This document shows, piece by piece, positions 2,746 through 52,308 of a stretch of DNA of 64,000 bases (positions are counted from its first letter, which is position 1; the number at the start of each line of letters is the position of its first letter). The notes under the pieces are model-generated. The model did not search any database, was not told where the DNA came from, and worked only from the letters and a program-made list of their open reading frames with translations. The position numbers and the translations under genes were made by a program. Source of the stretch: Escherichia phage vB-Eco-KMB39. Location of the stretch: sequence record OR539219.1. One strand, written 5' to 3'.

Positions 2746-2783
2746 CTTATTTCCTGTTTTAATTCGTGGATTTAATATACTAA

Positions 2784-2791
2784 TATTTATA
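2784..2791 (-). promoter_or_regulatory. late promoter TATAAATA
   Basis: Exact TATAAATA on minus strand 39 nt upstream of the internal-protein ATG. Confidence 0.45.
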
Positions 2792-2793
2792 CT

Positions 2794-2822
2794 AAAAAGC
2801 CCCAACCTTTCGGTCGGGGCTA
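2794..2822 (-). terminator. intrinsic terminator, identical copy of the 2237..2265 hairpin
   Basis: Same 24-nt AGCCCCGACC-GAAA-GGTTGGGGCT plus T-run; lies at the 3' end of the tRNA/stable-RNA transcription unit. Confidence 0.55.
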
Positions 2823-2829
2823 AGCCTTG

Positions 2830-3137
2830 CGGCAACCTTGTCGGGGTTCCACCTGCTAAGGCAAGTGTTTGTACGAAACGCCGGGATTCGAACCCGGTTA
2901 TTAAGTAGTTGACGCTACTCAATATTTTTAAAAGGCCATATCTCGACCATATCCGAACGTTCCGTCAAAAACGCTACTCGGCTTATGGCAAAGATATTTC
3001 CTCGAATCGATAATTCGGTGCGCCGTTTCTGCTGTGATATAAGGGGACATTAACAAAACATAAAGATTTATTAATGCCAGTCCTTAAACAGGGAACATCA
3101 GTCCGACGACTTGCCGGTAGCGACCCGGCTTCTTGTC
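2830..3137 (-). ncRNA. candidate small stable RNA(s), tRNA-like 3' module
   Basis: No ORF; minus strand contains CCGGG-TTCGAAT-CCCGG (T-arm-like) with pairing CGGAACG/CGTTTCG but no CCA and no standard cloverleaf; position recalls T4 species 1/2 RNAs (memory only). Confidence 0.25.
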
Positions 3138-3215
3138 TGGTCGAGGCAGTAGGGATCGAACCTACGACCCAGGACTTAGAAGGTCCTTGCTCTTCCTTCT
3201 GAGCTATGCCTCGTA
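3138..3215 (-). tRNA. tRNA-Arg (anticodon TCT)
   Basis: Hand-folded cloverleaf: acceptor CGAGGCA/TGCCTCG, anticodon loop CTTCTAA, T-arm GTAGG-TTCGATC-CCTAC, encoded CCA. Confidence 0.75.
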
Positions 3216-3217
3216 TT

Positions 3218-3292
3218 TGGCGGACGTGATAGGATTCGAACCTATAACCAATCGCTTAACAGGCGATCGCTCTGCCATTGAGCTACACATCC
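3218..3292 (-). tRNA. tRNA-Asn (anticodon GTT)
   Basis: Acceptor GGATGTG/CACGTCC, anticodon stem ATCGC/GCGAT, loop CTGTTAA, T-arm TAGG-TTCGAAT-CCTA, encoded CCA. Confidence 0.7.
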
Positions 3293-3296
3293 AAAT

Positions 3297-3383
3297 TGGT
3301 GGGGAGTGGTGGAGTCGAACCACCCGAGTCGCAATGACAATGAATTTACAGTCCACACCGCTACCCCTACGGGATAACTCCCC
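3297..3383 (-). tRNA. tRNA-Tyr (anticodon GTA), type II with long variable arm
   Basis: 87 nt; acceptor GGGGAGT/ACTCCCC, anticodon loop CTGTAAA, variable arm GTC-ATTGC-GAC, T-arm GGTGG-TTCGACT-CCACC, CCA; anticodon stem needs two G-U pairs. Confidence 0.55.
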
Positions 3384-35932: not shown

Positions 35933-36177
35933 TGGAAGGTTTAATTGAAGCTATTAAATCAAACGACCTCGTAGCCGCTCGTAAATTATTTGCTGAAGCC
36001 ATGGCTGCAAGAACGATTGATTTAATTAAAGAAGAAAAAATCGCTATCGCTCGTAATTTCTTAATCGAAGGTGAAGAACCTGAAGACGAGGATGATGAAG
36101 ACGAAGATAGTGATGATAAAGAAGACAAAAAAGACAAAGACTCTGATGAAGATGACGAAGACGAGGATGATGAATAA
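35932..36177 (+). CDS. 67: prohead core protein gp67
   Basis: 81 aa with acidic D/E-rich C-terminal half. Confidence 0.8.
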
Positions 36178-36602
36178 TGCTTCTGATCCCTGAAACTCAT
36201 GAATTAGTTCTCGAGAATGTCGAAGCACTTATTCCTGAAGCACAGGGTCGCTTTGACGAATTGTCTTCTGCTTTAAATAAAGACGATATAAATACAATTA
36301 TCGAGAATATGCTTGATGATGAAACTGATTTAGCAGTTGCATTAGCTTCTATTAATGAAAATATGCCGTTAAATGAATTCATTGTTAAGCATGTTTCAGC
36401 TCGTGGTGAAATTACACGTACTAAAGACCGCAAAACACGCGAACGTAATGCATTTCAAACCACTGGGCTGTCTAAAGCAAAACGTAGACAAATTGCTCGC
36501 AAAGCTACCAAAACGAAGATTGCCAATCCAGCAGGTCAATCTCGTGCTCAGCGTAAGCGTAAAAAAGCTCTTAAACGCCGTAAAGCATTAGGATTAAGCT
36601 AA
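36177..36602 (+). CDS. 68: prohead core protein gp68
   Basis: 141 aa; synteny. Confidence 0.8.
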
Positions 36603-37240
36603 TGAATGAACCCCAATTACTAATTGAAACTTGGGGTCAACCTGGCGAAATTATTGATGGTGTGCCAATGCTTGAATCCCACGATGGAAAAGACTTAGGT
36701 TTAAAACCTGGTTTATACATCGAAGGAATATTCATGCAAGCAGAAGTCGTCAATAGAAATAAACGTCTTTATCCAAAACGCATATTAGAAAAAGCGGTAA
36801 AAGACTATATTAATGAGCAAGTTTTAACTAAACAAGCTCTCGGAGAATTAAATCATCCTCCACGCGCTAATGTTGACCCGATGCAAGCCGCTATCATTAT
36901 AGAAGATATGTGGTGGAAAGGAAATGACGTATACGGACGAGCTCGTGTTATTGAAGGTGACCATGGTCCTGGAGATAAATTAGCAGCTAATATTCGTGCC
37001 GGATGGATTCCAGGAGTTTCTTCTCGTGGATTAGGTTCATTGACTGACACAAATAAAGGTTATCGTATCGTAAACGAAGGATTCAAATTAACTGTAGGTG
37101 TTGATGCAGTATGGGGTCCAAGTGCTCCAGATGCATGGGTAACTCCTAAGGAAATTACCGAATCACAGACGGCGGAAGCCGATACAAGTGCCGATGACGC
37201 CTATATGGCTCTCGCAGAGGCCATGAAAAAAGCGTTATAA
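36602..37240 (+). CDS. 21: prohead core protease gp21
   Basis: 212 aa; synteny 20-67-68-21-22-23. Confidence 0.9.
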   Translation: MNEPQLLIETWGQPGEIIDGVPMLESHDGKDLGLKPGLYIEGIFMQAEVVNRNKRLYPKRILEKAVKDYINEQVLTKQALGELNHPPRANVDPMQAAIIIEDMWWKGNDVYGRARVIEGDHGPGDKLAANIRAGWIPGVSSRGLGSLTDTNKGYRIVNEGFKLTVGVDAVWGPSAPDAWVTPKEITESQTAEADTSADDAYMALAEAMKKAL

Positions 37241-37243
37241 ATA
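37236..37243 (+). promoter_or_regulatory. late promoter TATAAATA for gene 22
   Basis: Exact TATAAATA overlapping the gp21 stop. Confidence 0.5.
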
Positions 37244-37270
37244 TTATTATCTAAACAACAGGACTACAAA

Positions 37271-38080
37271 ATGCTTAAAGAACAACTGATTGCCGAAGCG
37301 CAGAAAATTGATGCTTCCGTTGCTCTTGATAGTATTTTCGAATCAGTTAATATTTCTCCGGAAGCAAAAGAAACTTTCGGCACTGTATTCGAAGCTACCG
37401 TCAAGCAGCACGCCGTTAAATTAGCTGAATCTCATATCGCTAAAATTGCTGAAAAAGCAGAAGAAGAAGTAGAAAAAAATAAAGAAGAAGCCGAAGAAAA
37501 AGCTGAGAAGAAAATCGCTGAGCAAGCTTCTAAATTCATTGACCATCTTGCAAAAGAATGGCTCGCTGAAAATAAATTAGCAGTTGATAAAGGCATCAAA
37601 GCCGAACTGTTTGAATCCATGCTTGGTGGATTAAAAGAGCTCTTTGTTGAACACAACGTTGTTGTTCCAGAAGAATCAGTTGATGTTGTAGCTGAAATGG
37701 AAGAAGAGCTGCAAGAACATAAAGAAGAATCAGCTCGTCTGTTCGAAGAACTCAATATGCGCGACGCATATATCAATTATGTGCAGCGTGAAGTGGCATT
37801 GAGCGAAAGTACTAAAGATCTGACTGAGTCTCAAAAAGAAAAAGTCTCTGCTCTGGTCGAAGGTATGGATTATTCAGATGAATTCTCAAATAAATTGAGT
37901 GCCATCGTAGAAATGGTGAAGAAGTCTAATAAAGATGAAAGCACTATTACTGAGGGTATAAATACTCCTGATACTGAAGCAGCCGGACTGAATTTCGTCA
38001 CTGAAGCTGTAGAAGATAAAGCTGCACAGGGTGCAGAAGATATTGTAAGTGTATATGCGAAAGTCGCATCTCGTTTCTAA
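37271..38080 (+). CDS. 22: prohead scaffold core protein gp22
   Basis: 269 aa acidic coiled-coil protein. Confidence 0.85.
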   Translation: MLKEQLIAEAQKIDASVALDSIFESVNISPEAKETFGTVFEATVKQHAVKLAESHIAKIAEKAEEEVEKNKEEAEEKAEKKIAEQASKFIDHLAKEWLAENKLAVDKGIKAELFESMLGGLKELFVEHNVVVPEESVDVVAEMEEELQEHKEESARLFEELNMRDAYINYVQREVALSESTKDLTESQKEKVSALVEGMDYSDEFSNKLSAIVEMVKKSNKDESTITEGINTPDTEAAGLNFVTEAVEDKAAQGAEDIVSVYAKVASRF

Positions 38081-38098
38081 TTTTAAAGGTTAACACAA

Positions 38099-39664
38099 AT
38101 GACTATCAAAACTAAAGCTGAACTTTTGAACAAATGGAAGCCATTACTGGAAGGTGAAGGTTTACCGGAAATTGCTAATAGCAAACAAGCGATTATCGCT
38201 AAAATCTTTGAAAACCAGGAAAAAGATTTCCAGACAGCTCCGGAATATAAAGACGAAAAAATTGCTCAGGCATTCGGTTCTTTCTTAACAGAAGCTGAAA
38301 TCGGTGGTGACCACGGTTACAATGCTACCAACATCGCTGCAGGTCAGACTTCTGGCGCAGTAACTCAGATTGGCCCAGCTGTTATGGGTATGGTACGTCG
38401 TGCTATTCCTAACCTGATTGCTTTCGATATTTGCGGTGTTCAGCCGATGAACAGCCCAACTGGTCAGGTATTCGCACTGCGCGCAGTATATGGTAAAGAC
38501 CCAATCGCTGCCGGCGCTAAAGAAGCATTCCACCCAATGTATGGTCCAGATGCAATGTTCTCTGGTCAGGGTGCTGCTAAGAAATTCCCAGCTCTGGCTG
38601 CTAGCACACAAACCGTTGTAGGTGATATCTATACTCACTTCTTCCAGGAAACTGGTACTGTGTATCTGCAGGCTTCTGCTGTAGTAACAATCGATGCTGG
38701 TGCATCTGACGCAGCTAAATTAGATGCAGAAATTAAGAAACAAATGGAAGCTGGTGTACTGGTAGAAATCGCTGAAGGTATGGCTACTTCTATCGCTGAA
38801 CTCCAGGAAGGTTTCAACGGTTCTACCGATAACCCATGGAATGAAATGGGCTTCCGTATCGATAAACAAGTTATCGAAGCTAAATCTCGCCAGCTGAAAG
38901 CTGCTTACTCTATCGAATTAGCACAAGACCTCCGCGCTGTTCACGGTATGGATGCTGATGCTGAACTGTCTGGTATTCTGGCTACCGAAATCATGCTGGA
39001 AATCAACCGTGAAGTTGTTGATTGGATTAACTACTCAGCTCAGGTTGGTAAATCTGGTATGACCCTGACTCCAGGTTCTAAAGCTGGTGTATTTGACTTC
39101 CAGGATCCGATTGATATTCGTGGTGCTCGCTGGGCGGGTGAATCCTTTAAAGCTCTGTTGTTCCAGATTGACAAAGAAGCAGTTGAAATTGCTCGTCAGA
39201 CCGGTCGTGGTGAAGGTAACTTCATTATCGCTTCCCGTAACGTAGTTAACGTTCTGGCTTCAGTTGATACCGGCATTTCTTATGCTGCACAGGGTCTGGC
39301 TACCGGCTTTAACACTGATACTACCAAGTCAGTATTTGCTGGTGTTCTGGGTGGTAAATACCGTGTATATATCGACCAGTATGCTAAACAGGATTATTTC
39401 ACTGTAGGTTATAAAGGTCCGAACGAAATGGATGCTGGTATTTACTATGCTCCATATGTAGCTCTGACTCCGCTGCGTGGTTCCGATCCGAAGAACTTCC
39501 AACCAGTAATGGGATTCAAAACTCGTTACGGTATCGGTATCAACCCATTTGCAGAATCCGCTGCTCAGGCTCCGGCTTCTCGCATCCAGAGCGGTATGCC
39601 TTCTATTCTGAATAGCCTTGGTAAAAACGCTTACTTCCGCCGTGTATATGTTAAAGGTATCTAA
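38099..39664 (+). CDS. 23: major capsid protein gp23
   Basis: 521 aa beginning MTIKTKAELLNKWKPLLEGEG, recognised as T4-type gp23. Confidence 0.95.
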   Translation: MTIKTKAELLNKWKPLLEGEGLPEIANSKQAIIAKIFENQEKDFQTAPEYKDEKIAQAFGSFLTEAEIGGDHGYNATNIAAGQTSGAVTQIGPAVMGMVRRAIPNLIAFDICGVQPMNSPTGQVFALRAVYGKDPIAAGAKEAFHPMYGPDAMFSGQGAAKKFPALAASTQTVVGDIYTHFFQETGTVYLQASAVVTIDAGASDAAKLDAEIKKQMEAGVLVEIAEGMATSIAELQEGFNGSTDNPWNEMGFRIDKQVIEAKSRQLKAAYSIELAQDLRAVHGMDADAELSGILATEIMLEINREVVDWINYSAQVGKSGMTLTPGSKAGVFDFQDPIDIRGARWAGESFKALLFQIDKEAVEIARQTGRGEGNFIIASRNVVNVLASVDTGISYAAQGLATGFNTDTTKSVFAGVLGGKYRVYIDQYAKQDYFTVGYKGPNEMDAGIYYAPYVALTPLRGSDPKNFQPVMGFKTRYGIGINPFAESAAQAPASRIQSGMPSILNSLGKNAYFRRVYVKGI

Positions 39665-39679
39665 TCTTTGACGATTTAA

Positions 39680-39695
39680 GGGACCTTCGGGTCCC
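39680..39695 (+). terminator. hairpin plus T-run after gene 23
   Basis: GGGACC-TTCG-GGTCCC followed by TTTAGTTGTTTTTA. Confidence 0.5.
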
Positions 39696-39712
39696 TTTAG
39701 TTGTTTTTATGG

Positions 39713-39720
39713 TATAAATA
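39713..39720 (+). promoter_or_regulatory. late promoter TATAAATA for gene 24
   Basis: Exact TATAAATA 28 nt upstream of the gene 24 ATG. Confidence 0.55.
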
Positions 39721-39747
39721 AATCATATAAACCAAAAGGAAAGCGCA

Positions 39748-41031
39748 ATGGCTAAAATCAACGAACTTCTGCGCGAATCAACCACAACGAATAGCAACTC
39801 AATCGGTCGCCCAAATCTCGTTGCTTTGACTCGCGCTACCACTAAATTAATATATTCTGACATTGTAGCAACGCAAAGAACTAATCAACCTGTTGCTGCT
39901 TTTTATGGTATTAAATACCTTAACCCAGATAACGAATTTACATTTAAAACTGGTGCTACTTACGCTGGCGAAGCTGGGTATGTAGACCGAGAACAAATCA
40001 CAGAATTAACAGAAGAGTCTAAATTAACTCTCAATAAAGGCGATTTATTCAAATATAATAATATCGTTTATAAAGTATTAGAAGATACACCATTTGATAC
40101 CATTGAAGAAAGCGATTTAGAATTAGCTCTTCAGATTGCAATTGTTCTTTTAAAGGTTCGTCTATTTTCTGACGCAGCGTCAACGAGCAAATTTGAAAGC
40201 TCTGATAGTGAAATTGCGGATGCTAGATTCCAGATTAATAAATGGCAAACTGCAGTTAAATCTCGTAAACTTAAAACTGGCATCACAGTTGAATTAGCAC
40301 AAGATTTAGAAGCAAATGGATTCGATGCTCCTAATTTCCTGGAAGATTTGCTTGCAACTGAAATGGCGGATGAAATCAATAAAGATATTTTACAGTCTTT
40401 GATTACAGTATCAAAACGCTATAAAGTTACAGGAATTACTGATACTGGATTCATTGATTTGAGTTATGCATCTGCACCTGAAGCTGGTCGTTCATTATAC
40501 CGAATGGTATGTGAAATGGTTTCACATATCCAAAAAGAATCAACTTATACAGCAACGTTCTGCGTTGCTTCAGCTCGTGCCGCTGCGATTCTTGCTGCAT
40601 CAGGTTGGTTAAAACATAAACCAGAAGATGACAAATATCTTTCACAAAATGCCTACGGGTTCTTAGCTAATGGTTTACCACTTTATTGTGATACTAACAG
40701 CCCATTAGATTATGTAATCGTTGGTGTGGTAGAAAATATTGGCGAAAAAGAAATTGTTGGATCAATTTTCTATGCTCCGTATACAGAAGGTCTTGATTTA
40801 GATGACCCTGAACATGTAGGTGCATTTAAAGTTGTAGTTGATCCAGAAAGTTTGCAGCCATCTATCGGTTTATTGGTTAGATATGCTTTATCTGCAAATC
40901 CTTACACTGTAGCAAAAGATGAAAAAGAAGCAAGAATAATTGATGGTGGAGACATGGATAAAATGGCGGGTCGTTCAGATTTGTCTGTTTTATTAGGTGT
41001 TAAGCTACCAAAAATTATCGTTGATGAATAA
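39748..41031 (+). CDS. 24: capsid vertex protein gp24
   Basis: 427 aa; gp23 paralogue fold, follows gene 23. Confidence 0.9.
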   Translation: MAKINELLRESTTTNSNSIGRPNLVALTRATTKLIYSDIVATQRTNQPVAAFYGIKYLNPDNEFTFKTGATYAGEAGYVDREQITELTEESKLTLNKGDLFKYNNIVYKVLEDTPFDTIEESDLELALQIAIVLLKVRLFSDAASTSKFESSDSEIADARFQINKWQTAVKSRKLKTGITVELAQDLEANGFDAPNFLEDLLATEMADEINKDILQSLITVSKRYKVTGITDTGFIDLSYASAPEAGRSLYRMVCEMVSHIQKESTYTATFCVASARAAAILAASGWLKHKPEDDKYLSQNAYGFLANGLPLYCDTNSPLDYVIVGVVENIGEKEIVGSIFYAPYTEGLDLDDPEHVGAFKVVVDPESLQPSIGLLVRYALSANPYTVAKDEKEARIIDGGDMDKMAGRSDLSVLLGVKLPKIIVDE

Positions 41032-41037
41032 AACAAA

Positions 41038-41053
41038 GGGACCGAAAGGTCCC
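41038..41053. terminator. bidirectional terminator between convergent genes 24 and rnlB
   Basis: GGGACC-GAAA-GGTCCC with T-runs on both strands. Confidence 0.5.
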
Positions 41054-41060
41054 TTTTTAT

Positions 41061-42065
41061 TTAGCTTACCAATTCAATCCAAGCCGGACGAAGTACATCT
41101 TGTACCATTTTAACTAATTCCTTTTTAATCAAAGAAGGATTATCCGCTTGAGTTAGAGTAATACCTTCACGAGAAGTTTCTTCCAAAATATCTTGAACAG
41201 TTAGTCCCATCACTTTTCCAAAATCCTTCGGACCAATTTCGCCAATTTTAGAAATAACGTTATTTACTCGGTTCAGTGTAACGTAACAAGCTAAAATTCC
41301 CAGCAATTTATTATCAGCTTCTGACAGTTCAACTTTAGCTTTAATAGGCTTATCAGACTTTTTCTTTTCACTAAATTTAGAGTTCTTGCATTTAATCGCT
41401 ACGCGATTGCCATTAGGCATCCAAGAAGGATAACAAGGTTTCAATACATATCCTTCAGCAGTAAATACTTCGCCTTTTGCTTCGGCATTCCAAACGCATT
41501 TATTTGCATCAACTAATCCAGCATGGTCTACTGTAAAATTATAATCTTGAACGACAGAATCTAAATCGTTTGGCAATTTAATAAGCTCTTCAAATTTACC
41601 GCGACCCAAAAGTGGAGCCATTTTAAATTTAAATGTATTACAGAATGATTCCATCATATAATCATCGACATAAGTCACATCACCACTTTCGGTAGTAACA
41701 ATAATGTCAAATACATAAAAATCTTTATCACCATAATCGACATTCTTCTGAATGCCAGGTCCAGCAAATTCGCCAAAGACTTGATAAGATACAACTGCCG
41801 AAGTTTCCATAATATCTTGTACTGCTTTAATGGAATCAGCGTAATTTTTTAGAATAATTTCATACCCAAAGAAATCTTCAGCAGGAAGAATAGGACCAGT
41901 ACGTTTAGCACAAGTTGCTTTATCGCGTTCAATAATCAGTGAGAAATTTGTGCCATGAATCTTTTCACGAGCTACCCATTCGCCGCCAGTCAATCCTAAA
42001 CTGTAAAGTTTTTCAATGAATTTAGAATTGTAATGATTTTCAAGACTGCTATACTTTTTAAACAT
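41061..42065 (-). CDS. rnlB: RNA ligase 2
   Basis: 334 aa; nucleotidyltransferase motif KIHGTN. Confidence 0.85.
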
Positions 42066-42074
42066 AATTAATCC

Positions 42075-42353
42075 TCAAAATGTAATTTCTAACCAATCAC
42101 CATCACGCTGGTCACTATTGACTTTAAAGCTAAATCCTTCTTTTCTCAGCCAATCACCAATTTCTTCAGTAATCAATTTATCGCGAGCAGTGCAATAATA
42201 ACTAAAATATGTTTTACCTTGTTCAGCTGCTTTATTAGCAAGTTCCGAAAAATCTTTAATAAAACACTCTAGCTTAAACTGTTTGCTTTTAAGTGCTTTT
42301 TCGCGTAATTGATTAGCAAAAGATTCATTTTCATAAAGATCATACTGTTCCAT
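42075..42353 (-). CDS. hypothetical protein
   Basis: 92-aa ORF between rnlB and hoc. Confidence 0.55.
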   Translation of the reverse strand: MEQYDLYENESFANQLREKALKSKQFKLECFIKDFSELANKAAEQGKTYFSYYCTARDKLITEEIGDWLRKEGFSFKVNSDQRDGDWLEITF

Positions 42354-42555
42354 TTTTCACCTTCTTATTAATATGTCTTTTTCTATAGACAACTTTTTCT
42401 CGAGTCTCAAATTTATTCTTAGCAGTCATAGCTCGAGCCCATAATACAGCCACTTCCTTTGCCTGTAAGTTCAATTCACGAGCAATTTCAATGAATGACT
42501 TTCCAGACTCATGGAGTGTAAACACCACAACCTCAGTTCTCATAATCAATCTCAT
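42340..42555 (-). CDS. hypothetical small protein, possible helix-turn-helix
   Basis: 71-aa ORF with HTH-like segment SFIEIARELNLQAKEV; no convincing RBS. Confidence 0.45.
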   Translation of the reverse strand: MRLIMRTEVVVFTLHESGKSFIEIARELNLQAKEVAVLWARAMTAKNKFETREKVVYRKRHINKKVKNGTV

Positions 42556-42623
42556 GTTATCGAGTTGGTGCCATTATATACATCGTTTTCTGATTGTGTT
42601 TTGTGTGCTTTCAAAATGAAGAA

Positions 42624-42639
42624 AGGGGCCGAAGCCCCT
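42624..42639 (-). terminator. hairpin plus T-run after hoc
   Basis: AGGGGC-TTCG-GCCCCT on minus strand followed by TTTCTTCATTTT. Confidence 0.45.
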
Positions 42640-42643
42640 GAGA

Positions 42644-44062
42644 TTATGGATAGGTATAGATGATACCAGTTTCTAAAGCAGTTTTATGAATGATGTATCC
42701 ATTACGCGATTCTTGAACATCAACTTCTGGATAGTCTTTCATCATCTTCTGAAGAGTGTAACGATGCAAGTAGTACTTACTATCTGGATCGTCAGTTTTC
42801 CAATCTTTACCTTCTTCAGTCATTTTTTGGATTTCATCCATAACCCACCAACCGCACCAGATATAAGCTGAAGTACGATGTGGAAGAGGATGAACATAAG
42901 GCAATTCACCTTCTGGTTCCGGAGCAACTTTATCAGTTACCTGAACTTGACCAGTCGCTTTAACTGTTTTACTATCATAGTCAGTTGCTGTAACGACAGC
43001 AGTAACTTCAATAGTTTGGCTTCCAATAGATGAGGTATCAACAGTATATACGTTAGTTGACCCTTCTACAGGAGAAGAATCTTTCTTCCATGAATACGTA
43101 ATTTGTGCTTCTTCCGGAGCATCCGTAACATTAGCGGTAAATGTAGCCGAAGCATCTTGCTGAACATTAATAGAAGGAGGAGTCAATGTAACCTGTGGAT
43201 TCATTGTCTTCTTATTAACCGTTAATGATACTTCATTAGAAGTAACTGTTTTTGCGTCGTAATCCGTTGCTGTTACTTGGGCTATGCATTTAATTTTTTT
43301 AACTCCAGCCACAGTTGGAGTATAGTTAAATGTAGAGTTAGTTTCTCCATCAACTTGTGAATCATCTACATACCACTGATACGTGGCAGACGCTCCATCA
43401 GGTTGAGAAGCTAAGGCAGCAGTAAATTGAACCGGGGTTCCAATTACTCCAGCAGCAGGACTATCAGGAGTTACTGCCAAGGTAGTTGTCTGCGTCTTTT
43501 TATTAACAGTCAGTGACACTTCATTAGAAGTAACTTCCTTTGTATCATAATCTGCCGCGGTTACTTGAGCTACACACTTAATTGTTTTAACTCCGCTTGT
43601 GGAAGGAGTGTAATTAAATGTAGCAGAAGTTGCTTCGCCCACAGGAGAACCGTCAACGTACCATTGATATGTAGCAGTTGCGCCCGATGGCTGCGAAGCT
43701 AAAGCAGCAGTAAATTCAACAGCTGTTCCAATTACTCCTTCTGGAGGACTATTAGGAGTTACAGCTAAAGTAGTTGTCTGTGTCTTATTTTGAACTGTGA
43801 TAGTTGTAGTAGCTTCTGCTGTTTCAGCATCAGTATCTGGAACTGGGTTTGTTGCAACTACTTTAATAGTTTTTTGACCGGCAGGTCCTTTTAATACATA
43901 ACTAAAAGTTGCAGATGTTTCTTCCTGTGGAACATCATCTACAGTCCAAGCATATGTAATAGGTCCATCTCCAGTTTGACCACTGGGTGTAGCAGTAAAC
44001 TGCTGAGTCTGATCTATAACTCCAGTAGGTGTTTTAGGAGTTATATCAACTGTAAAAGCCAT
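42644..44062 (-). CDS. hoc: outer capsid protein Hoc, four Ig-like repeats plus capsid-binding C-terminus
   Basis: 472 aa; two near-identical ~96-aa Ig-like repeats in tandem plus two diverged ones; position between rnlB and inh. Confidence 0.8.
   Translation of the reverse strand: MAFTVDITPKTPTGVIDQTQQFTATPSGQTGDGPITYAWTVDDVPQEETSATFSYVLKGPAGQKTIKVVATNPVPDTDAETAEATTTITVQNKTQTTTLAVTPNSPPEGVIGTAVEFTAALASQPSGATATYQWYVDGSPVGEATSATFNYTPSTSGVKTIKCVAQVTAADYDTKEVTSNEVSLTVNKKTQTTTLAVTPDSPAAGVIGTPVQFTAALASQPDGASATYQWYVDDSQVDGETNSTFNYTPTVAGVKKIKCIAQVTATDYDAKTVTSNEVSLTVNKKTMNPQVTLTPPSINVQQDASATFTANVTDAPEEAQITYSWKKDSSPVEGSTNVYTVDTSSIGSQTIEVTAVVTATDYDSKTVKATGQVQVTDKVAPEPEGELPYVHPLPHRTSAYIWCGWWVMDEIQKMTEEGKDWKTDDPDSKYYLHRYTLQKMMKDYPEVDVQESRNGYIIHKTALETGIIYTYP
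43205..43780 (-). repeat. tandem duplication of a 288-bp Ig-like domain unit inside hoc
   Basis: Units 43493..43780 and 43205..43492 encode QTTTLAVTP...SNEVSLTVNKKT twice, with high identity at DNA level. Confidence 0.65.
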
Positions 44063-44071
44063 AAGTTATCC

Positions 44072-44752
44072 TTATTTTAATGTTACGAAAGAAGAGTTGC
44101 GTGTTTCACGAATTAAAACTGATCCGTCACGGTTAATGTAGTAAATTAAGCTAAATAAAGTTTGGTGTGCCGACGCGTGTTCAAAACTAGTTGGGTGAGA
44201 TTTCCAATCCGGAGTTTCAGCGATCCATTGATAAATCCACCAAGGAACCGTGCAAAATCCTGGATTTTTTCCAATCAGCTGAAGATTCGGACTAAAGTTT
44301 TCCGGAAGAGTAAATACAGACGGCTTTTCAGATTCAATAATCTCAGCTACAGCCTGTTCGAATTTTTCTTCAACAAAAGGAGTATCTTCAATCAAAACGT
44401 CAGTATTTTCGGGAATTTTATCCGTTTCTACTACTTCAATTTTAATGTCAGATTTAACCGGAGAATCAATCAGAAGTGCTGCTTCTGGATTGACTTCTTC
44501 ATCGTCATATTTTAACCCCTCTGCGGCATCAGCAGCATTGATTAAGTCTTTAATAGATAACCCATCAGTCTCTGGCATAGGTTCACTAGCGAGCTTCTGG
44601 AGGGCTTCTTCAATATCAATAACGATATTATCAAAAGATTTATTCTTTTTGACCTTTATACCAAACTGTTCAGCATATTCAGCTAATTTAGCTTTAGCTT
44701 CTTTATTATCATCAAGAGCCTTCAGCTCTGCAATATAATCTTTATCTATCAT
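44072..44752 (-). CDS. inh: prohead protease inhibitor Inh
   Basis: 226 aa; assigned by synteny hoc-inh-segE-uvsW. Confidence 0.7.
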   Translation of the reverse strand: MIDKDYIAELKALDDNKEAKAKLAEYAEQFGIKVKKNKSFDNIVIDIEEALQKLASEPMPETDGLSIKDLINAADAAEGLKYDDEEVNPEAALLIDSPVKSDIKIEVVETDKIPENTDVLIEDTPFVEEKFEQAVAEIIESEKPSVFTLPENFSPNLQLIGKNPGFCTVPWWIYQWIAETPDWKSHPTSFEHASAHQTLFSLIYYINRDGSVLIRETRNSSFVTLK

Positions 44753-44765
44753 AATATTTCCTCAG

Positions 44766-44773
44766 TATAAATA
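44766..44773 (+). promoter_or_regulatory. late promoter TATAAATA upstream of segE
   Basis: Exact TATAAATA 29 nt upstream of the segE ATG. Confidence 0.45.
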
Positions 44774-44801
44774 TAGATATATTTATTACTCGGAAAATAG
44801 T

Positions 44802-45419
44802 ATGTACCACTTTGTATATGAAACAACAAATCTAATAAACGGTAAAAAGTATATAGGAAAACACTCTACTGATGACTTGAATGATGGTTACCTTGGTTCC
44901 GGTAAGGCAATTCAGCAGGCTATAAAGAAATATGGTGAAAACAATTTCTCTAGAACAATACTAAAAGAGTTTAAAACTTCCGAAGAAGCGTACATGTATG
45001 AAGAAGAAATTATAACTCCTGAAATAATAAAAAGCAAAAATTATTATAATATGAAACCTGGTGGAATTGGTGGAATTGTTATGACTACAGAGGTTATAGC
45101 AAAGATGAAAGAATCTTCCGCTAAGAGATTTGAAAACTCACCGGGCACGGTATTAGGTACAACTTGTTACACCAATGGAACTAAAAATATTTTTATTAAA
45201 CCTGGAGAACTTGTTCCAGAAGGATTTGTAAAAGGGATGGTTCATCCTAATAGAAAGTCCAGAAAAGGATGTAAAGTCAAACCGACTACCACAGGAACTT
45301 TTTGGGTCAATAATGGCGCAATAAATAAATTAATACAACCAGACGGTATTATTCCCGACGGATTTATTAAAGGTCGTCTCATGAAAAGAGATTCTAAAGG
45401 CAAATTTAGTAAGGCATAA
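44802..45419 (+). CDS. segE: GIY-YIG homing endonuclease
   Basis: GIY-YIG motifs FVYETTNLINGKKYIGKH and YLGSG; position before uvsW as in T4 (memory). Confidence 0.75.
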   Translation: MYHFVYETTNLINGKKYIGKHSTDDLNDGYLGSGKAIQQAIKKYGENNFSRTILKEFKTSEEAYMYEEEIITPEIIKSKNYYNMKPGGIGGIVMTTEVIAKMKESSAKRFENSPGTVLGTTCYTNGTKNIFIKPGELVPEGFVKGMVHPNRKSRKGCKVKPTTTGTFWVNNGAINKLIQPDGIIPDGFIKGRLMKRDSKGKFSKA

Positions 45420-45421
45420 TT

Positions 45422-46930
45422 ATGGATATTAAAGTACATTTTCACGACTTCAGTCATGTACGCATCGATTGTGAAGAGAGCACGTTCCACGAATTAAGAG
45501 ATTTCTTTTCGTTTGAGGCAGATGGATATAGGTTTAATCCTCGCTTCAGATATGGCAACTGGGATGGACGAATCCGTCTTTTAGATTATAATCGTCTTCT
45601 TCCGTTCGGCTTAGTCGGGCAAATTAAAAAGTTCTGCGATAACTTTGGCTATAAAGCCTGGATTGACCCTCAAATTAATGAAAAAGAAGAATTATCAAGA
45701 AAAGATTTTGATGAATGGCTTTCTAAATTAGAAATCTATTCAGGAAATAAAAGAATTGAACCACACTGGTATCAAAAAGATGCAGTGTTCGAAGGATTAG
45801 TTAATCGTCGCAGAATTCTTAATCTTCCAACATCCGCAGGTAAATCTTTAATTCAAGCTTTGCTTGCACGTTATTATTTGGAAAATTATGAAGGTAAAAT
45901 TCTTATCATTGTTCCAACAACTGCTCTGACAACTCAGATGGCTGATGACTTTGTTGACTATCGTTTATTCAGTCATGCAATGATAAAGAAAATCGGCGGC
46001 GGAGCATCAAAAGATGATAAATATAAAAATGATGCACCAGTCGTCGTTGGTACATGGCAAACTGTAGTTAAACAACCGAAAGAATGGTTCTCACAGTTTG
46101 GAATGATGATGAATGATGAATGTCATCTTGCTACAGGAAAAAGTATTTCATCTATCATATCAGGATTAAATAACTGTATGTTTAAATTTGGTCTATCAGG
46201 TTCATTACGTGATGGCAAAGCCAATATCATGCAGTATGTTGGAATGTTTGGTGAAATATTTAAACCAGTAACGACTTCTAAATTAATGGAAGATGGACAA
46301 GTAACTGAGCTAAAAATTAATAGTATTTTTCTTCGCTATCCCGATGAGTTCACTACTAAATTAAAGGGAAAAACTTACCAAGAAGAAATAAAAATTATTA
46401 CTGGACTCAGTAAAAGAAATAAATGGATTGCTAAATTAGCTATTAAACTTGCACAAAAAGATGAAAACGCTTTTGTCATGTTTAAGCATGTATCACATGG
46501 TAAAGCTATTTTCGATTTAATTAAAAATGAATACGATAAAGTTTATTACGTATCAGGGGAAGTTGATACCGAAACACGCAACGTAATGAAAACCCTAGCT
46601 GAAAACGGTAAAGGAATAATTATAGTAGCTAGTTATGGTGTATTTTCTACTGGTATTTCAGTTAAAAATCTGCATCACGTTGTTTTAGCGCACGGTGTTA
46701 AATCAAAAATCATTGTATTACAAACAATCGGTCGTGTATTACGTAAGCATGGTTCTAAGACAATAGCAACAGTCTGGGATCTTATAGATGACGCGGGCGT
46801 AGTTTCTAAATCAAAAACATCTTCTAAAAAATACTCGCATTTAAACTATCTTTTAAAACATGGACTTGATCGTATTCAGCGTTATGCTGATGAAAAGTTT
46901 AATTATGTGATGAAAGAGGTTAAACTTTGA
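45422..46930 (+). CDS. uvsW: UvsW helicase (SF2, DECH box)
   Basis: 502 aa; Walker A PTSAGKS, DECH at MMMNDECHL. Confidence 0.9.
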   Translation: MDIKVHFHDFSHVRIDCEESTFHELRDFFSFEADGYRFNPRFRYGNWDGRIRLLDYNRLLPFGLVGQIKKFCDNFGYKAWIDPQINEKEELSRKDFDEWLSKLEIYSGNKRIEPHWYQKDAVFEGLVNRRRILNLPTSAGKSLIQALLARYYLENYEGKILIIVPTTALTTQMADDFVDYRLFSHAMIKKIGGGASKDDKYKNDAPVVVGTWQTVVKQPKEWFSQFGMMMNDECHLATGKSISSIISGLNNCMFKFGLSGSLRDGKANIMQYVGMFGEIFKPVTTSKLMEDGQVTELKINSIFLRYPDEFTTKLKGKTYQEEIKIITGLSKRNKWIAKLAIKLAQKDENAFVMFKHVSHGKAIFDLIKNEYDKVYYVSGEVDTETRNVMKTLAENGKGIIIVASYGVFSTGISVKNLHHVVLAHGVKSKIIVLQTIGRVLRKHGSKTIATVWDLIDDAGVVSKSKTSSKKYSHLNYLLKHGLDRIQRYADEKFNYVMKEVKL

Positions 46931-47619
46931 ATTATAAATTAATATATGATAATTTAATTAATAGAGCCCAGAATCGGGCTCGCCTTAATGGATACACTGA
47001 AACACATCATATAATTCCTAGATGTATGGGTGGTACAAATGATAAGTGTAATTTAGTAGAACTAACGGCTGAAGAACATTTTATAGCCCATAAACTTTTA
47101 GCTAAAATTCATCCAAACCATTACGGTATAATTAAAGCTGTTATATGTATGGGGATGAATTCAAATACTCATGAAAGACACGTCAATAAATCTTACGCAT
47201 GGGAACGTCGTAAAATGGCAGAACTTCAATCCGGCGAAGGTAATCCATTTTACGGAAAACACCATACGGAAGAACATAAACAATATATGTCAAAACTCAT
47301 GAAAAGTCGTCCAATTACATGGGGAAATAAAATTAGTAAAACTAAAAGAATGAACCCAACGAAATGGACTGAAGAAGCTAAAAGATTACATTCAATCAAT
47401 CAATCGGGTAAAAATAACGGCATGTATGGAAGGAAACATTCCGCTAAATCTATTCAGAAAATTAAAGATAACATGCCAGATAATTCAGGAGCTAATAACC
47501 CAGCTGCTAAACCTATAGAAGTAAATGGTGTTAAGTATAAATGTATGAAAGATGCTTCTAAAGCTACTGGATTATCAATGTACAAACTAAGAATACTTAG
47601 AAAAACAGTTAATTTATAA
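46927..47619 (+). CDS. HNH homing endonuclease with NUMOD-like repeats, inserted between uvsW and uvsW.1
   Basis: Motif HHIIPRCMGGTNDKCNLVELTAEEHFIAH; apparent TTG start overlapping the uvsW stop (TTGA); paralogue of 8508..9167. Confidence 0.7.
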   Translation: MNYKLIYDNLINRAQNRARLNGYTETHHIIPRCMGGTNDKCNLVELTAEEHFIAHKLLAKIHPNHYGIIKAVICMGMNSNTHERHVNKSYAWERRKMAELQSGEGNPFYGKHHTEEHKQYMSKLMKSRPITWGNKISKTKRMNPTKWTEEAKRLHSINQSGKNNGMYGRKHSAKSIQKIKDNMPDNSGANNPAAKPIEVNGVKYKCMKDASKATGLSMYKLRILRKTVNL

Positions 47620-47631
47620 GGGCTTCGGCCC
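47620..47631 (+). terminator. UUCG-type hairpin after the HNH gene
   Basis: GGGC-TTCG-GCCC followed by TTTGG; weak. Confidence 0.3.
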
Positions 47632-47644
47632 TTTGGAGAAAAAG

Positions 47645-47875
47645 ATGTTACTAGAATTTAAACAATTTCTTTATGAAGCTTCTATTGATGAATTTATGGG
47701 TAAAATTGCCTCTTGTCAAACATTAGAAGGTTTAGAAGAACTTGAAGCTTATTATAAGAAAAGAGTTAAAGAAACTGAATTAAAAGATACTGATGACATC
47801 TCTGTGAGAGATGCTTTGGCAGGAAAAAGAGCTGAATTAGAAGATTCAGATGATGAAGTAGAAGAAAGCTTTTAA
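47645..47875 (+). CDS. uvsW.1: UvsW.1, small acidic helicase-associated protein
   Basis: Start moved from track 47633 to ATG 47645 (MLLEFKQFLYEA..., GGAGAAAAAG RBS); acidic C-terminus. Confidence 0.7.
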   Translation: MLLEFKQFLYEASIDEFMGKIASCQTLEGLEELEAYYKKRVKETELKDTDDISVRDALAGKRAELEDSDDEVEESF

Positions 47876-47930
47876 ATTAAAAAAGGCCCAACCAAAAAGG
47901 AAGGGCCAAAACTATAGACTAAAGGTCACA

Positions 47931-48098
47931 CTATAGCAAAAGTTGTGTTTCATTTAATTGTTCTTCCGAACTTTCTGAAACTGGTAGTTCTTTAATGTAA
48001 TTATAACAAGGCCCAGGATGTACAGGACCTTTGTCTGTTTCAACAACCAATGCAGAATCGATTGGAGTTTTACAGACAACACAAATCTTATCTGACAT
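47931..48098 (-). CDS. small zinc-ribbon protein, not in ORF track (55 aa)
   Basis: Hand translation MSDKICVVCKTPIDSALVVETDKGPVHPGPCYNY... with AGGAG RBS; CxxC plus second Cys; uvsY.-1-like position. Confidence 0.45.
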   Translation of the reverse strand: MSDKICVVCKTPIDSALVVETDKGPVHPGPCYNYIKELPVSESSEEQLNETQLLL

Positions 48099-48126
48099 GA
48101 TTGTCTCCTCTAAATTATATATCTAT

Positions 48127-48351
48127 TTATATAACTCTCATATGCATATCAATACCCATATCTTTAGAATAAAAATATTCATCAAGATATCCAGCAAATT
48201 TTCCTTTAATATAAAGGACATCTTCACCACACGGGTGGTCGGCCAGGATACGAATATCCTGACGCTTAAGATTATACTTTTTCATTAAGAATTGAATCTC
48301 AGTTTCAAATTCTTCTTCATAATTAAAAGCATCATCAATGCTATATCTCAT
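48127..48351 (-). CDS. hypothetical protein (uvsY.-2-like position)
   Basis: 74-aa ORF whose stop overlaps the uvsY start. Confidence 0.55.
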   Translation of the reverse strand: MRYSIDDAFNYEEEFETEIQFLMKKYNLKRQDIRILADHPCGEDVLYIKGKFAGYLDEYFYSKDMGIDMHMRVI

Positions 48352-48764
48352 TATTTTCCAGCCTCAAATGCTCGCATGTCTTGAATGTGCTTAATAGCAA
48401 ATCCACGTGATTTAATAGCATCAAGAGCTCCGCTACAGAAATCTAATAAAATCCCCCAATACTGTAACGAGGTATCAACCTTTAAAACATCCTTATCAGC
48501 TGATAGAACTGTCTTCATTTCTGATTTCTCGTAACGATCCATACTAAATTCATCACCATCTCCTCGTCCCGAGTAGTAGTCTAATTTAGCTTTAAGAGCA
48601 ACTTTCTTTTGCGCGTCAATTCTAAGCATTTCCTTTTTAATACTTGAATGCTTATTAAGCCATTTACTATATAACATCACATTATTAGCTGCTTCATACT
48701 GTAATTTAGTCGAATCTATAAACACATCTTTCTTCAATTCTTCTTGAAGATCTTCTAATCTCAT
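48351..48764 (-). CDS. uvsY: recombination mediator UvsY
   Basis: 137 aa MRLEDLQEELKKDVFIDSTKLQYEAANN..., recognised. Confidence 0.9.
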   Translation of the reverse strand: MRLEDLQEELKKDVFIDSTKLQYEAANNVMLYSKWLNKHSSIKKEMLRIDAQKKVALKAKLDYYSGRGDGDEFSMDRYEKSEMKTVLSADKDVLKVDTSLQYWGILLDFCSGALDAIKSRGFAIKHIQDMRAFEAGK

Positions 48765-48830
48765 ATTGTTCTCTATTCAATTGTTATTGGATGGACTTAG
48801 ATTCATTATACCACGTTTTAACGTGAAGCA

Positions 48831-49229
48831 TTATACTCTATTACTAGAAGCCAGTTGCAGTTTTATCTGCTCAATATCATCAGGGTTATCGATGACCGAA
48901 AAACGTATTTCTACTATCAGAGTATAATCATCATAAACGGGTATCACATTAACTGCTAATTTATCAATACGTGGCTCATAGTTTCTTACTGCGCTTTCGA
49001 TATTACGCTCAACTGTGTCAGCAGTAAGAGGAGTCATATTTTCAAAAAGCTGGTCTGATAAATCACATCCAAATTCAGGGTCAAACGGTCTTGAACCTTT
49101 TCTTGTTGTAATAATTCCCAAAAGACTGTTTTTAATTGACCTTAATCCAAGTGATCTGGAAACGTCTTTGTTCCAATCCATTTTCATTTCCGGGTCAATG
49201 TCAGAATAAAGCTTATTAATATTTGACAT
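48831..49229 (-). CDS. 25: baseplate wedge protein gp25
   Basis: 132 aa, GPW/gp25 family; synteny. Confidence 0.85.
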   Translation of the reverse strand: MSNINKLYSDIDPEMKMDWNKDVSRSLGLRSIKNSLLGIITTRKGSRPFDPEFGCDLSDQLFENMTPLTADTVERNIESAVRNYEPRIDKLAVNVIPVYDDYTLIVEIRFSVIDNPDDIEQIKLQLASSNRV

Positions 49230-49855
49230 TATAGTAACTCAAAGAACTCTTTGAGGCCTCTTATTACGTGAGCATGGGTTTTTCCACACTCTGGACACTT
49301 AATTGGAACAGCCAAATAAACAGTAGGCTTTAAAAGCATATCTTTTATAGCTACAATATCTGACTCTGTGATGATAGAATATAAATCTTCCAGTTCTTTT
49401 TCATTTAAGTCTTCAACTGGAATGCTTTCCCCGTTAGCATGAATCGTTTCTATACATGATACTATCATGTGGGCTATATTTTTATCATCAAAAATTTTAG
49501 GGTATCGGAATTTAATTTTAATGTCACCCAGTGTATACCAGAGGTCTTCTGGTGCATCTATTTGTGTATGTAATAGATTTATATGGGTTGGTATTTCAGT
49601 TCCACAGGTGCACTTCCAGGAGTTTTCGTGATTAACTTCACCGAGAGAATGTGCCCATAAATGAATCAACAATAGTTCTGATTCTTGGCGGTTTAAATCT
49701 TTTGCATTTGTGCAGTCTTTGATTAGCTTTTTAACAATTACTTCTACGGAACCATTATTTTTGGCAGTAATAAGTTCTAGATATTCTTTAAGCGTGAATG
49801 CGCGACAATTGATTATTTTAGAACCAACTCTCACATCAAATTTGTATTCATACAT
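49229..49855 (-). CDS. 26: baseplate hub protein gp26
   Basis: 208 aa; divergent from gene 51. Confidence 0.8.
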
Positions 49856-49876
49856 ATTTAGCTCCTTTATTTATCA

Positions 49877-49884
49877 TATTTATA
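49877..49884 (-). promoter_or_regulatory. late promoter TATAAATA for genes 26/25
   Basis: TATAAATA on minus strand 22 nt upstream of the gene 26 ATG; overlaps the plus-strand motif by 4 nt. Confidence 0.5.
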
Positions 49885-49888
49885 AATA
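49881..49888 (+). promoter_or_regulatory. late promoter TATAAATA for gene 51
   Basis: Exact TATAAATA 18 nt upstream of the gene 51 ATG. Confidence 0.5.
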
Positions 49889-49905
49889 GAATAAAAGGAG
49901 CATCT

Positions 49906-50655
49906 ATGGCAAACATTATTCGTTGTAAATTACCAGATGGTGTTCATCGTTTTAAACCATTTACGGTAGAAGATTATCGAGATTTTTTGTTAGTTCGAAA
50001 CGATATAGAACATCGGTCACCACAAGAACAGAAAGAAATAATTACTGATTTAATTGATGATTATTTTGGAGACTATCCGAAGACTTGGCAACCATTTATA
50101 TTTTTGCAGGTATTTGTAGGGTCAATAGGTAAAACAAAAGTACCGGTCACATTTGTATGTCCAAAATGTAAAAAAGAAAAGACAGTTCCATTTGAAATAT
50201 ATCAAAAAGAATTAAAGGAACCTGTTTTTGATGTAGCTAATGTTAAAATTAAATTAAAGTTTCCTTCTGAGTTTTATGAAAATAAAGCAAAGATGATTAC
50301 TGAAAATATTCATTCTGTTCAAGTAGATGAAATATGGTATGATTGGAAGGAAATTAGTGAATCCAGTCAAATAGAACTTGTTGATGCCATCGAGATAGAA
50401 ACATTAGAAAAAATTCTCGATGCAATGAATCCTATTAATTTAACTCTACATATGTCATGCTGTAATAAGTACATTAAAAAATACACTGATATAGTAGACG
50501 TGTTTAAGCTATTAGTTAACCCAGATGAGATATTTACTTTTTATCAAATTAATCACACACTCGTAAAAAGTAATTATAGCTTAAATTCAATAATGAAAAT
50601 GATTCCTGCCGAGCGCGGATTCGTATTAAAACTGATTGAGAAGGATAAACAATAA
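49906..50655 (+). CDS. 51: baseplate hub assembly catalyst gp51
   Basis: 249 aa; synteny. Confidence 0.8.
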
Positions 50656-51827
50656 TGAGTATGTTGCAACGCCCCGGATATCCAAATCTCAGCGTTAAAT
50701 TATTTGATAGCTACGACGCTTGGAGTAATAATAGATTTGTTGAATTAGCTGCTACTATTACTACATTAACTATGCGGGATTCTCTTTATGGCCGAAATGA
50801 AGGAATGCTGCAGTTTTATGATTCTAAAAACATCCATACAAAAATGGATGGAAATGAAATAATTCAGATTTCTGTAGCTAATGCAAATGATATTAATAAT
50901 GTTAAAACACGAATTTATGGATGTAAGCATTTTTCCGTGTCAGTAGATTCAAAAGGTGATAACATCATTGCTATTGAATTGGGAACTATTCATTCTATAG
51001 AAAATCTTAAATTTGGTAGACCATTTTTCCCTGATGCGGGTGAATCAATAAAAGAAATGCTTGGTGTCATTTATCAAGACCGTACACTATTAACTCCAGC
51101 AATAAATGCTATAAATGCTTATGTTCCTGATATTCCATGGACTAGCACATTTGAAAACTATTTGTCATATGTAAGAGAAGTTGCTCTAGCTGTAGGAAGT
51201 GACAAATTTGTATTTGTGTGGCAAGACATCATGGGAGTTAACATGATGGACTATGATATGATGATAAACCAAGAACCATATCCAATGATTGTCGGCGAGC
51301 CATCTTTAATAGGTCAATTCATCCAAGAATTAAAATACCCATTAGCATATGATTTCGTTTGGTTGACTAAATCGAATCCTCACAAACGTGACCCAATGAA
51401 AAATGCTACTATCTATGCTCATTCATTTTTAGATTCTTCATTGCCAATGATTACTACGGGAAAGGGCGAAAACTCTATTGTAGTGTCAAGGTCAGGTGCT
51501 TATTCTGAAATGACTTATAGGAATGGTTATGAAGAAGCTATTCGTCTTCAAACTATGGCACAATATGACGGCTATGCTAAATGTTCTACTGTTGGTAATT
51601 TTAACTTGACTCCTGGTGTTAAAATTATTTTTAATGATAGTAAAAACCAATTTAAAACAGAATTTTACGTTGATGAAGTTATCCATGAATTATCCAATAA
51701 TAACTCAGTAACTCATCTATATATGTTCACTAATGCAACGAAACTGGAAACAATAGACCCAGTTAAGGTTAAAAATGAATTTAAATCTGATACTACCACT
51801 GAAGAAAGTAGTTCTTCCAATAAGTAA
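50655..51827 (+). CDS. 27: baseplate hub protein gp27
   Basis: 390 aa; synteny. Confidence 0.85.
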
Positions 51828-52308
51828 TAAAGAAGTTTCTATTCCTAAAATGGGTCTTAAACATTATAACATTTTAAAAGATGTTAAAGGCCCTGATGAA
51901 AATTTAAAACTTCTTATTGATTCTATTTGTCCGAATTTGTCACCAGCAGAAGTTGATTTCGTTTCTATTCATTTATTGGAATTTAATGGAAAGATTAAAT
52001 CTCGTAAAGAAATAGATGGTTATACTTATGACATTAATGATGTTTATGTGTGCCAAAGATTAGAATTTCAATACCAAGGAAATACATTTTATTTTAGACC
52101 TCCTGGAAAATTTGAACAATTTTTAACGGTGAGCGATATGTTATCTAAATGCTTACTTAAGGTCAACGATGAAGTTAAAGAAATTAATTTTCTTGAGATG
52201 CCAGCATTCGTTTTAAAATGGGCAAATGATATTTTTACAACTTTAGCAATTCCTGGCCCTAATGGTCCAATAACTGGAATTGGCAATATTATTGGATTAT
52301 TTGAATGA
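51775..52308 (+). CDS. 28: baseplate hub distal protein gp28
   Basis: 177 aa; ATG lies inside the 3' end of gene 27. Confidence 0.75.

Follow-up and report, generated by a model that had tools for sequence, protein, structure and literature searches.

The four-Ig hoc gene of Escherichia phage vB-Eco-KMB39 belongs to a common allele class and carries an old duplication of its middle Ig-like unit

The hoc gene of Escherichia phage vB-Eco-KMB39 contains two consecutive 288-bp units which a preliminary description had taken as nearly identical Ig-like repeats produced by a recent tandem duplication. This raises the question whether the gene documents a fresh evolutionary event, with repeats prone to further expansion and contraction, or represents a standard allele. 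The locus was analysed within a window of 64,000 nucleotides (the whole stretch of DNA studied here, from record OR539219.1), to which all positions refer.

The minus-strand ORF at positions 42644-44062 (1419 bp) codes for a protein of 472 amino acids (aa) followed by the stop codon. A sequence search of the PDB with this protein matched T4 Hoc (5vf3_Z; E = 1e-214). In the window, the ORF order rnlB-24.2-24.3-hoc-inh-segE-uvsW is that of the T4 annotation. The gene is located between inh on one side and 24.3, 24.2 and rnlB on the other, as expected of a T4-like Hoc, and its flanking genes share 95-99% DNA identity with those of T4. By reading frame, PDB match and gene order, the gene is hoc, present as its four-Ig allele and encoding the T4-like head fibre protein (head outer capsid decoration protein). 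Directly past the hoc stop codon, at 42613-42639 on the minus strand, a hairpin resembling an intrinsic terminator (AGGGGC-TTCG-GCCCCT) and a subsequent T-rich run were noted on reading the sequence. The T4 spacer has an identical hairpin 3' of hoc, and in phage DalCa a rho-independent terminator is annotated at the equivalent position. No exact match to the late-promoter sequence TATAAATA was found upstream of inh and hoc on the hoc strand; the nearest exact match to TATAAATA is at 44766-44773 on the plus strand, upstream of segE. Small plus-strand ORFs within hoc and inh (42686-42871, 44162-44515 and 44445-44738) were taken as antisense chance ORFs.

The protein begins with Ig-like domain 1 (D1; aa 1-92, encoded at 43787-44062 on the minus strand, as are all domains that follow). 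Its coding region shares 85% nucleotide identity with that for aa 1-92 of T4 Hoc, and AlphaFold2 predicts a beta-sandwich with a pLDDT of ~90. Two middle units come next. Unit u1, designated type 1 (aa 93-188; 43499-43786, minus strand), is without counterpart in T4 and sits in the gap of the T4 alignment. Unit u2, designated type 2 (aa 189-284; 43211-43498, minus strand), is orthologous to domain 2 of T4 Hoc, with 90% nucleotide identity to the T4 unit and a Pfam PKD signature at aa 195-253. The last Ig-like domain (aa 285-380; 42923-43210, minus strand) is orthologous to domain 3 of T4 Hoc; it is 87% identical in nucleotides to the T4 segment for aa 189-284 and carries the Pfam signatures Ig_3 and I-set at aa 289-374. 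The C-terminal domain for capsid binding (aa 381-472; 42647-42922, minus strand) shows 95% nucleotide identity to T4 and a dN of 0.004.

An AlphaFold2 model built with 21 sequences comprised four beta-sandwich domains with a pLDDT of ~90 up to aa 380; it was weak on the C-terminal domain, with pLDDT below 50 at aa 380-403 and 445-472. The positions that vary from unit to unit fall mostly in predicted loops of this model. In a Foldseek comparison with the PDB, the top hits were arrays of four Ig domains, namely those of Dscam, Sidekick and ICAM-5 D1-D4. Membership among Hoc proteins was defined by a C-terminal capsid-binding domain homologous to aa 281-376 of T4 Hoc. The window protein possesses this domain and, ahead of it, the N-terminal string of Ig-like domains that also characterises Hoc. 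In the T4 alignment, the C-terminal domain keeps all of the gp23-contact residues (Y, H, R, WW and ESRNG) listed for T4 Hoc, i.e. Y293, H295, R300, W309, W310 and ESRNG 355-359 in T4 numbering (Fokine et al. 2023, PMC10385173). The preliminary description of a 472-aa Hoc made up of four Ig-like domains plus a capsid-binding C-terminus is therefore correct, with PDB, Pfam, AlphaFold2 and Foldseek results all in agreement.

T4 Hoc (NP_049793; PDB 5vf3 and others) has 376 aa. Global alignment with the window protein was colinear from end to end and contained one gap, 96 aa long and set by the aligner opposite aa 93-188. T4 Hoc had been described as about one domain shorter, and the alignment run here makes the difference exactly one 96-aa unit. 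T4 Hoc has three Ig domains and the window Hoc four, the extra one being u1; D1, the sole middle unit and the final Ig domain of T4 are orthologous to those of the window (85-90% nucleotide identity), and the genomic position of the gene is identical.

The two units were delimited by self-comparison of the protein, in which an offset of 96 aa gave 68 matches at 90 positions while every other offset from 80 to 109 gave 28 or fewer. In addition, a repeat search detected two long direct-repeat families with a spacing of 288 nt and 75-80% identity. Both results bear out the presence of two consecutive 288-bp units in hoc; the interval originally assigned to them, 43205-43780, equals the 576 bp of u1 plus u2 displaced by 6 nt from the domain register. 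The units are not nearly identical, however. DNA identity was 74.7% (73 mismatches in 288 positions), as compared with 25.9 +/- 2.5% for shuffled sequence, protein identity was 77%, and the longest exact run was 18 nt. By thirds of the unit, nucleotide identity amounted to 83%, 61.5% (central third) and 79%. Tandem Repeats Finder did not report any repeat over 42000-45000 because u1 and u2 are too diverged, and the repeat is shown instead by the offset identity and the repeat search. Between u1 and u2, dS was 1.29 and dN was 0.145 (dN/dS ~0.11), with saturation of synonymous sites in the central third; both units are kept by purifying selection. Among nine units, synonymous diversity at codons with an invariant amino acid was 0.19 at the 3' unit boundary versus 0.37-0.38 in the centre. 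The lower value at the boundary is suggestive of a 'recombination linker' acting at the nucleotide level.

To judge the age of the duplication, the dS of 1.29 was set against the divergence of window and T4, which it exceeds by a factor of four to nine: window-T4 dS was 0.27-0.36 in the orthologous parts of hoc and 0.14-0.26 in the neighbouring genes inh, rnlB and 24.2. In the same neighbouring genes, dS between the window and RB69, a phage of another genus, was at least 1.6. For the T4 middle unit, dS was 0.27 with respect to u2 and 0.87 with respect to u1, and nucleotide identity to u1 was 77%. Units of other phages could be matched one by one to those of the window. Phage OES_C-2 has a u1 and a u2 that are 96% and 98% identical in nucleotides to their respective window counterparts, whereas all u1-u2 cross-comparisons gave 75-77%. 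Similarly, u1 is 94% identical in nucleotides to the single middle unit of F25, a phage with a 376-aa Hoc. As the dS is this high, the units are closer to their counterparts in other phages and the allele is shared, the duplication must be regarded as old and inherited. It is an ordinary feature of the gene, and its description as recent is refuted.

Further, 167 middle units from 120 proteins (118 standard-length database proteins, T4 and the window) were clustered by protein sequence, which yielded two main types, type 1 and type 2. In Hocs with two middle units, the first was of type 1 in 29 of 30 cases and the second of type 2 in 26 of 30. The sole middle unit of 376-aa Hocs was of type 1 in 76 of 82 proteins and of type 2 in the other six, T4 included, so that the lone unit of T4 represents the rarer type among the sampled 376-aa forms. 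Of the multi-unit Hocs scored, 36 without and 37 with the window, none exceeded 85% protein identity between its units. The copies are thus neither near-identical nor each other's closest relatives, nor is the pair restricted to a narrow clade, all three of which would be expected of a recent tandem duplication.

The frequency of the allele was read from a sample and from a list of best matches ranked by similarity to the query, which do not amount to a census. A megablast search with the hoc gene gave 678 matching phage records, of which 60 were sampled in even steps down the ranking. Genes of 1416-1419 bp, corresponding to the 472-aa type, were found in 20 of the sampled records (approximately one third) and genes of 1129-1137 bp, corresponding to 376 aa, in 30 (approximately half); the sample also included two five-Ig genes and two genes of ~845 bp (~280 aa). 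Among the best 120 proteins from a collection of 5.8 billion proteins, 81 had 376 aa, 29 had 472 aa, nine had 567-570 aa and one had 468 aa. The 472-aa Hocs of many sequenced Tequatrovirus phages, among them OES_C-2, ECO07P4, PP01, slur02 and vB_EcoM-G28, have the same length and domain order as that of the window and show point differences only (92-97% nucleotide identity over the whole gene, protein identity up to 98-100%). The window gene is another member of this common class of 472-aa, four-Ig Tequatrovirus hoc alleles. In the records, 472-aa Hocs are annotated as Hoc, as Hoc-like head decoration or as PKD domain protein.

Hoc lengths of 280/282, 376, 472 and 568/570 aa correspond to zero to three copies of the middle unit, i.e. 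to steps of whole units. At the lower end, the Hoc of JQD51 (280 aa) consists of D1, the last Ig domain and the C-terminus and has no middle unit, and that of AV111 (282 aa) contains a hybrid domain in which a type-2 middle unit runs, in register, into the end of the last Ig domain, the junction being a TATDYD motif that both share. At the upper end, the 570-aa Hoc of UGKSEcP2 contains three middle units with mutual DNA identities of 76-78%. In F25, D1 is 100% identical in DNA to that of the window, and the single middle unit starts at the 5' end as type 1 and shows patches of type 2 toward the 3' end. Four pairs of proteins differ in unit number while their flanks (280 aa) are 100% identical (P0003/P0115, P0023/P0111, P0035/P0115 and P0037/P0115), and in two further proteins, P0098 and P0072, domains of the T4 type are combined with domains of the RB69 type. 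Because of this rampant mosaicism, trees of hoc are unreliable.

Closely related genomes thus differ by whole units, as expected of a locus with variable copy number. The long exact tracts between copies that frequent slippage or unequal crossover would call for are lacking, the maximum being 18 nt. The proposal that the repeats serve as a substrate for expansion and contraction accordingly holds at the scale of populations, in which zero to three copies occur, but frequent length changes within a single phage stock are not expected, given that u1 and u2 match exactly over such short stretches only. Unequal recombination within one molecule may work poorly at this homology, and a large share of the variation may stem from exchange in co-infections.

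Several explanations for the adjacency of u1 and u2 were weighed. A recent tandem duplication in the lineage of this phage, leaving near-identical units as a hot substrate for expansion and contraction, would account for two adjacent in-frame units of 288 bp, one of which is missing from T4. It is nevertheless scarcely credible, being refuted by the divergence of the units in DNA identity, dS and exact runs, and Tandem Repeats Finder gave no hit; moreover, OES_C-2 has the same two units, approximately one third of the sampled records carry the two-unit allele, and no multi-unit Hoc sampled has copies above 85% protein identity. Nor would sequence error rescue it, as the Hocs of independent assemblies (P0009-P0011) are 98-100% identical to that of the window; P0009 differs by one residue, and relatives at 98% identity occur in independent assemblies. 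The probability that the repeat as such results from misassembly or from misreading is practically negligible. With 73 differing positions, reads are placed unambiguously; the same 1419-bp gene is found in hundreds of independent records; no break interrupts the reading frame, and all four Ig domains have a confidently predicted fold. Nothing in support of an artefact was found in the analysis of the window hoc, the matching records and the model.

Horizontal acquisition of the extra domain, with another genus supplying a four-Ig hoc either of the RB69 type (Mosigvirus) or of the JS10/Jiaodavirus type, was considered in view of the Hocs of RB69, JS10, DalCa and phiKp_22, which have 468-471 aa and four Ig domains, and of the chimeras P0098 and P0072. 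It was rejected by the domain identity matrix and is very improbable: against the 77% between u1 and u2, identities of u1 and u2 were 52% and 57% to RB69 D2, and 42% and 38% to RB69 D3, while u1 reached 27-38% with the domains of JS10 and phiKp_22. In the latter two phages the last Ig domain was duplicated (D3-D4 58-76% identical), in events independent of that in the window. Unlikely, yet to be taken seriously, is an out-of-register crossover in a mixed infection that joined diverged type 1 and type 2 alleles of 376 aa, an event which might be much younger than the divergence of the units. Both types do occur as sole middle unit, u1 shares 97% protein identity with the lone middle units of P0086 and P0097, unit number varies between flank-identical pairs, and the hybrid junctions show that Ig units are exchanged in and out of register. 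Against such a crossover speak the nearly fixed order of type 1 and type 2 and the wide spread of an allele with internal divergence; one ancient origin with later losses would explain both at least as well. In addition, single-unit alleles may have come from the tandem form by deletion, as the 3' type-2 patches of F25 would suggest, and the data fit gain as well as loss of a middle unit.

Taken together, the window very probably carries the common allele with two middle units, derived from an old duplication in the T4 lineage and forming part of a recombining copy-number cassette. According to this old-duplication model, the u1/u2 pair would have arisen inside the T4-type hoc lineage, after its split from RB69-type hoc and long before the divergence of present-day Tequatrovirus isolates, and both units would then have been retained under purifying selection. 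The middle unit would behave as a cassette at the level of the population, present in 0, 1, 2 or 3 copies (280, 376, 472 or 568 aa). Homologous recombination in register, acting on Ig units that are paralogous or allelic, would reshuffle its diverged types, with exchange at conserved boundary and core motifs during co-infection. We infer this type of recombination from the hybrid junctions, the mosaic units, the flank-identical pairs, the chimeras and the series of zero to three copies; judged from these sequence comparisons, it would most plausibly take place in mixed infections. More tentatively, and with somewhat less than even confidence, we propose that reshuffling of old unit types at boundary motifs generates discrete fibre lengths and mixed binding surfaces, and that selection for fibre length or valency, e.g. 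in adherence to mucus or to bacterial surfaces, might maintain the polymorphism.

Each gp23 hexamer holds Hoc at its centre, where the C-terminal domain of Hoc serves as the anchor and from where Hoc projects its string of Ig-like domains. It has been implicated in adherence to mucus and bacterial surfaces and is the main display scaffold of T4 nanoparticle vaccines. By homology with T4 Hoc, the window Hoc should bind with its C-terminus at hexamer centres and project its Ig string; as its anchor domain is near-identical to that of T4 Hoc, it would probably do so as a monomer at the gp23 hexamer centres of the mature capsid. Since T4 Hoc has been described as a 180-Å fibre of four domains (PMC10385173), the window fibre is predicted to be one Ig domain, or roughly 4-5 nm, longer than that of T4. 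Hoc variants differing in domain number use different MUC2-binding sites (PMC11853027), which makes an effect of the four-Ig allele on adhesion plausible.

Natural T4-like phages thus carry discrete Hoc alleles with 2, 3, 4 or 5 Ig domains, the 376-aa form of T4 being just one of them, and the four-Ig Hoc of the window is a standard allele rather than the trace of a fresh evolutionary event. Knowledge of the series is useful for the annotation of isolates, the choice of therapeutic phages and the design of display constructs. Variability in the number of Ig domains of Hoc is already published: homologs have one to ten Ig-like domains in variable strings, and close relatives of T4 differ greatly (Fokine et al. 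2023, PMC10385173). The literature searched yielded such general statements and the report on a two-Ig variant in PhiPNJ-9 (PMC11853027); no explicit description of the 376/472/568 series (0-3 copies), of a four-Ig Hoc in Tequatrovirus or of hybrid junctions was found in the searchable literature. The series of zero to three copies and the hybrid junctions extend a known theme to a modest degree.

Among known systems, the Hoc homolog of Serratia phage Muldoon (10 Ig domains; PMC10385173) resembles that of the window in combining a conserved C-terminal anchor with a variable Ig string. Muldoon-type phages are far more distant, and the window represents a small-scale, within-genus version of the same variability in Ig number. 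The Hoc of PhiPNJ-9 (PMC11853027) has two Ig domains and lacks domain 3, while D1, the middle unit and the anchor are kept. Like the Hocs of AV111 and JQD51, it is one whole Ig module short of T4 Hoc, and these three are contractions in contrast to the expansion seen in the window. The Hoc of RB69 (471 aa, Mosigvirus), which is also found in the Tequatrovirus DalCa, has four Ig-like domains and a C-terminal anchor as in the window, but its extra domain is of other origin: RB69 D3 represents a separate, older lineage, and u1 and u2 of the window are co-orthologs of RB69 D2. JS10 and phiKp_22 have duplicated their last Ig domain, unlike the window, in which the middle unit is duplicated. On the evidence of these domain relationships, internal Ig duplication has taken place repeatedly and independently in Hoc, the u1/u2 event being specific to the T4-type lineage.

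Judged by nucleotide identity, hoc (window 42644-44062, minus strand) is a local hot spot of divergence within its 16-kb surroundings (window 36000-52000). Phage Pu-Krd-SF6 was 98.1% identical to the window across this 16-kb region but only 93.4% identical in hoc. In the comparison with T4, the Ig-coding parts of hoc reached 85-90% identity, as against 95-99% for the flanking genes.

The segment encoding the capsid-binding domain at the C terminus (window 42647-42922, minus strand; residues 381-472) shares 96% nucleotide identity with the corresponding end of RB69 hoc, and the megablast match was confined to that segment. Since dS between the window and RB69 ranged from 1.1 to more than 2 in the remainder of hoc and in the neighbouring genes, the conservation of the anchor module suggests either a recent inter-genus exchange or an unusual constraint at the nucleotide level. 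DalCa, which is classed as a Tequatrovirus, carries an RB69-type hoc, and two Hoc proteins from the database (P0098 and P0072) are chimeras of T4-type with RB69-type Hoc at the level of domains, with switch points coinciding with domain boundaries. In the record of JQD51 (PV204681.1), annotation labels appear to be shifted: the gene upstream of hoc, at the position of inh in other records, is labelled 'putative helicase', hoc itself is listed as 'hypothetical protein', and the name 'Hoc-like head decoration protein' is given to the small gene downstream, at the position of 24.3.

Between inh and uvsW lies segE (window 44802-45419, plus strand), which encodes a GIY-YIG homing endonuclease. Just upstream of it, a copy of the T4 late-promoter core TATAAATA is located at 44766-44773 (plus strand). 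This core occurs 25 times in the whole window (10.0 ± 3.3 expected), an excess that a T4-like genome would be expected to show. Among five hoc-neighbouring genes compared, segE is the closest to its T4 counterpart (98.7% DNA identity; 202 of 205 amino acids), the other four showing 94.8-96.9% DNA identity. The gene is also present in F25; it is absent between inh and uvsW in OES_C-2, UGKSEcP2, DalCa, RB69 and JS10, where inh directly adjoins uvsW. A speculative link is that SegE, by making double-strand breaks approximately 0.8 kb away from hoc, could promote the recombination observed in that gene.

Duplication of an Ig-like domain was also evident in other phages. The last Ig-like domain is the one duplicated in JS10 and phiKp_22, where the third and fourth domains are 58-76% identical. 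A second JS10 gene (286 amino acids; JS10 locus positions 2455-3315, minus strand) also carries a Hoc-like annotation; it is located immediately downstream of hoc on the opposite strand. Matches to Hoc proteins of Klebsiella phages comprised long alleles (about 468 amino acids) and shorter matches lacking the first ~110 residues of the query, which looks like a parallel copy-number polymorphism.
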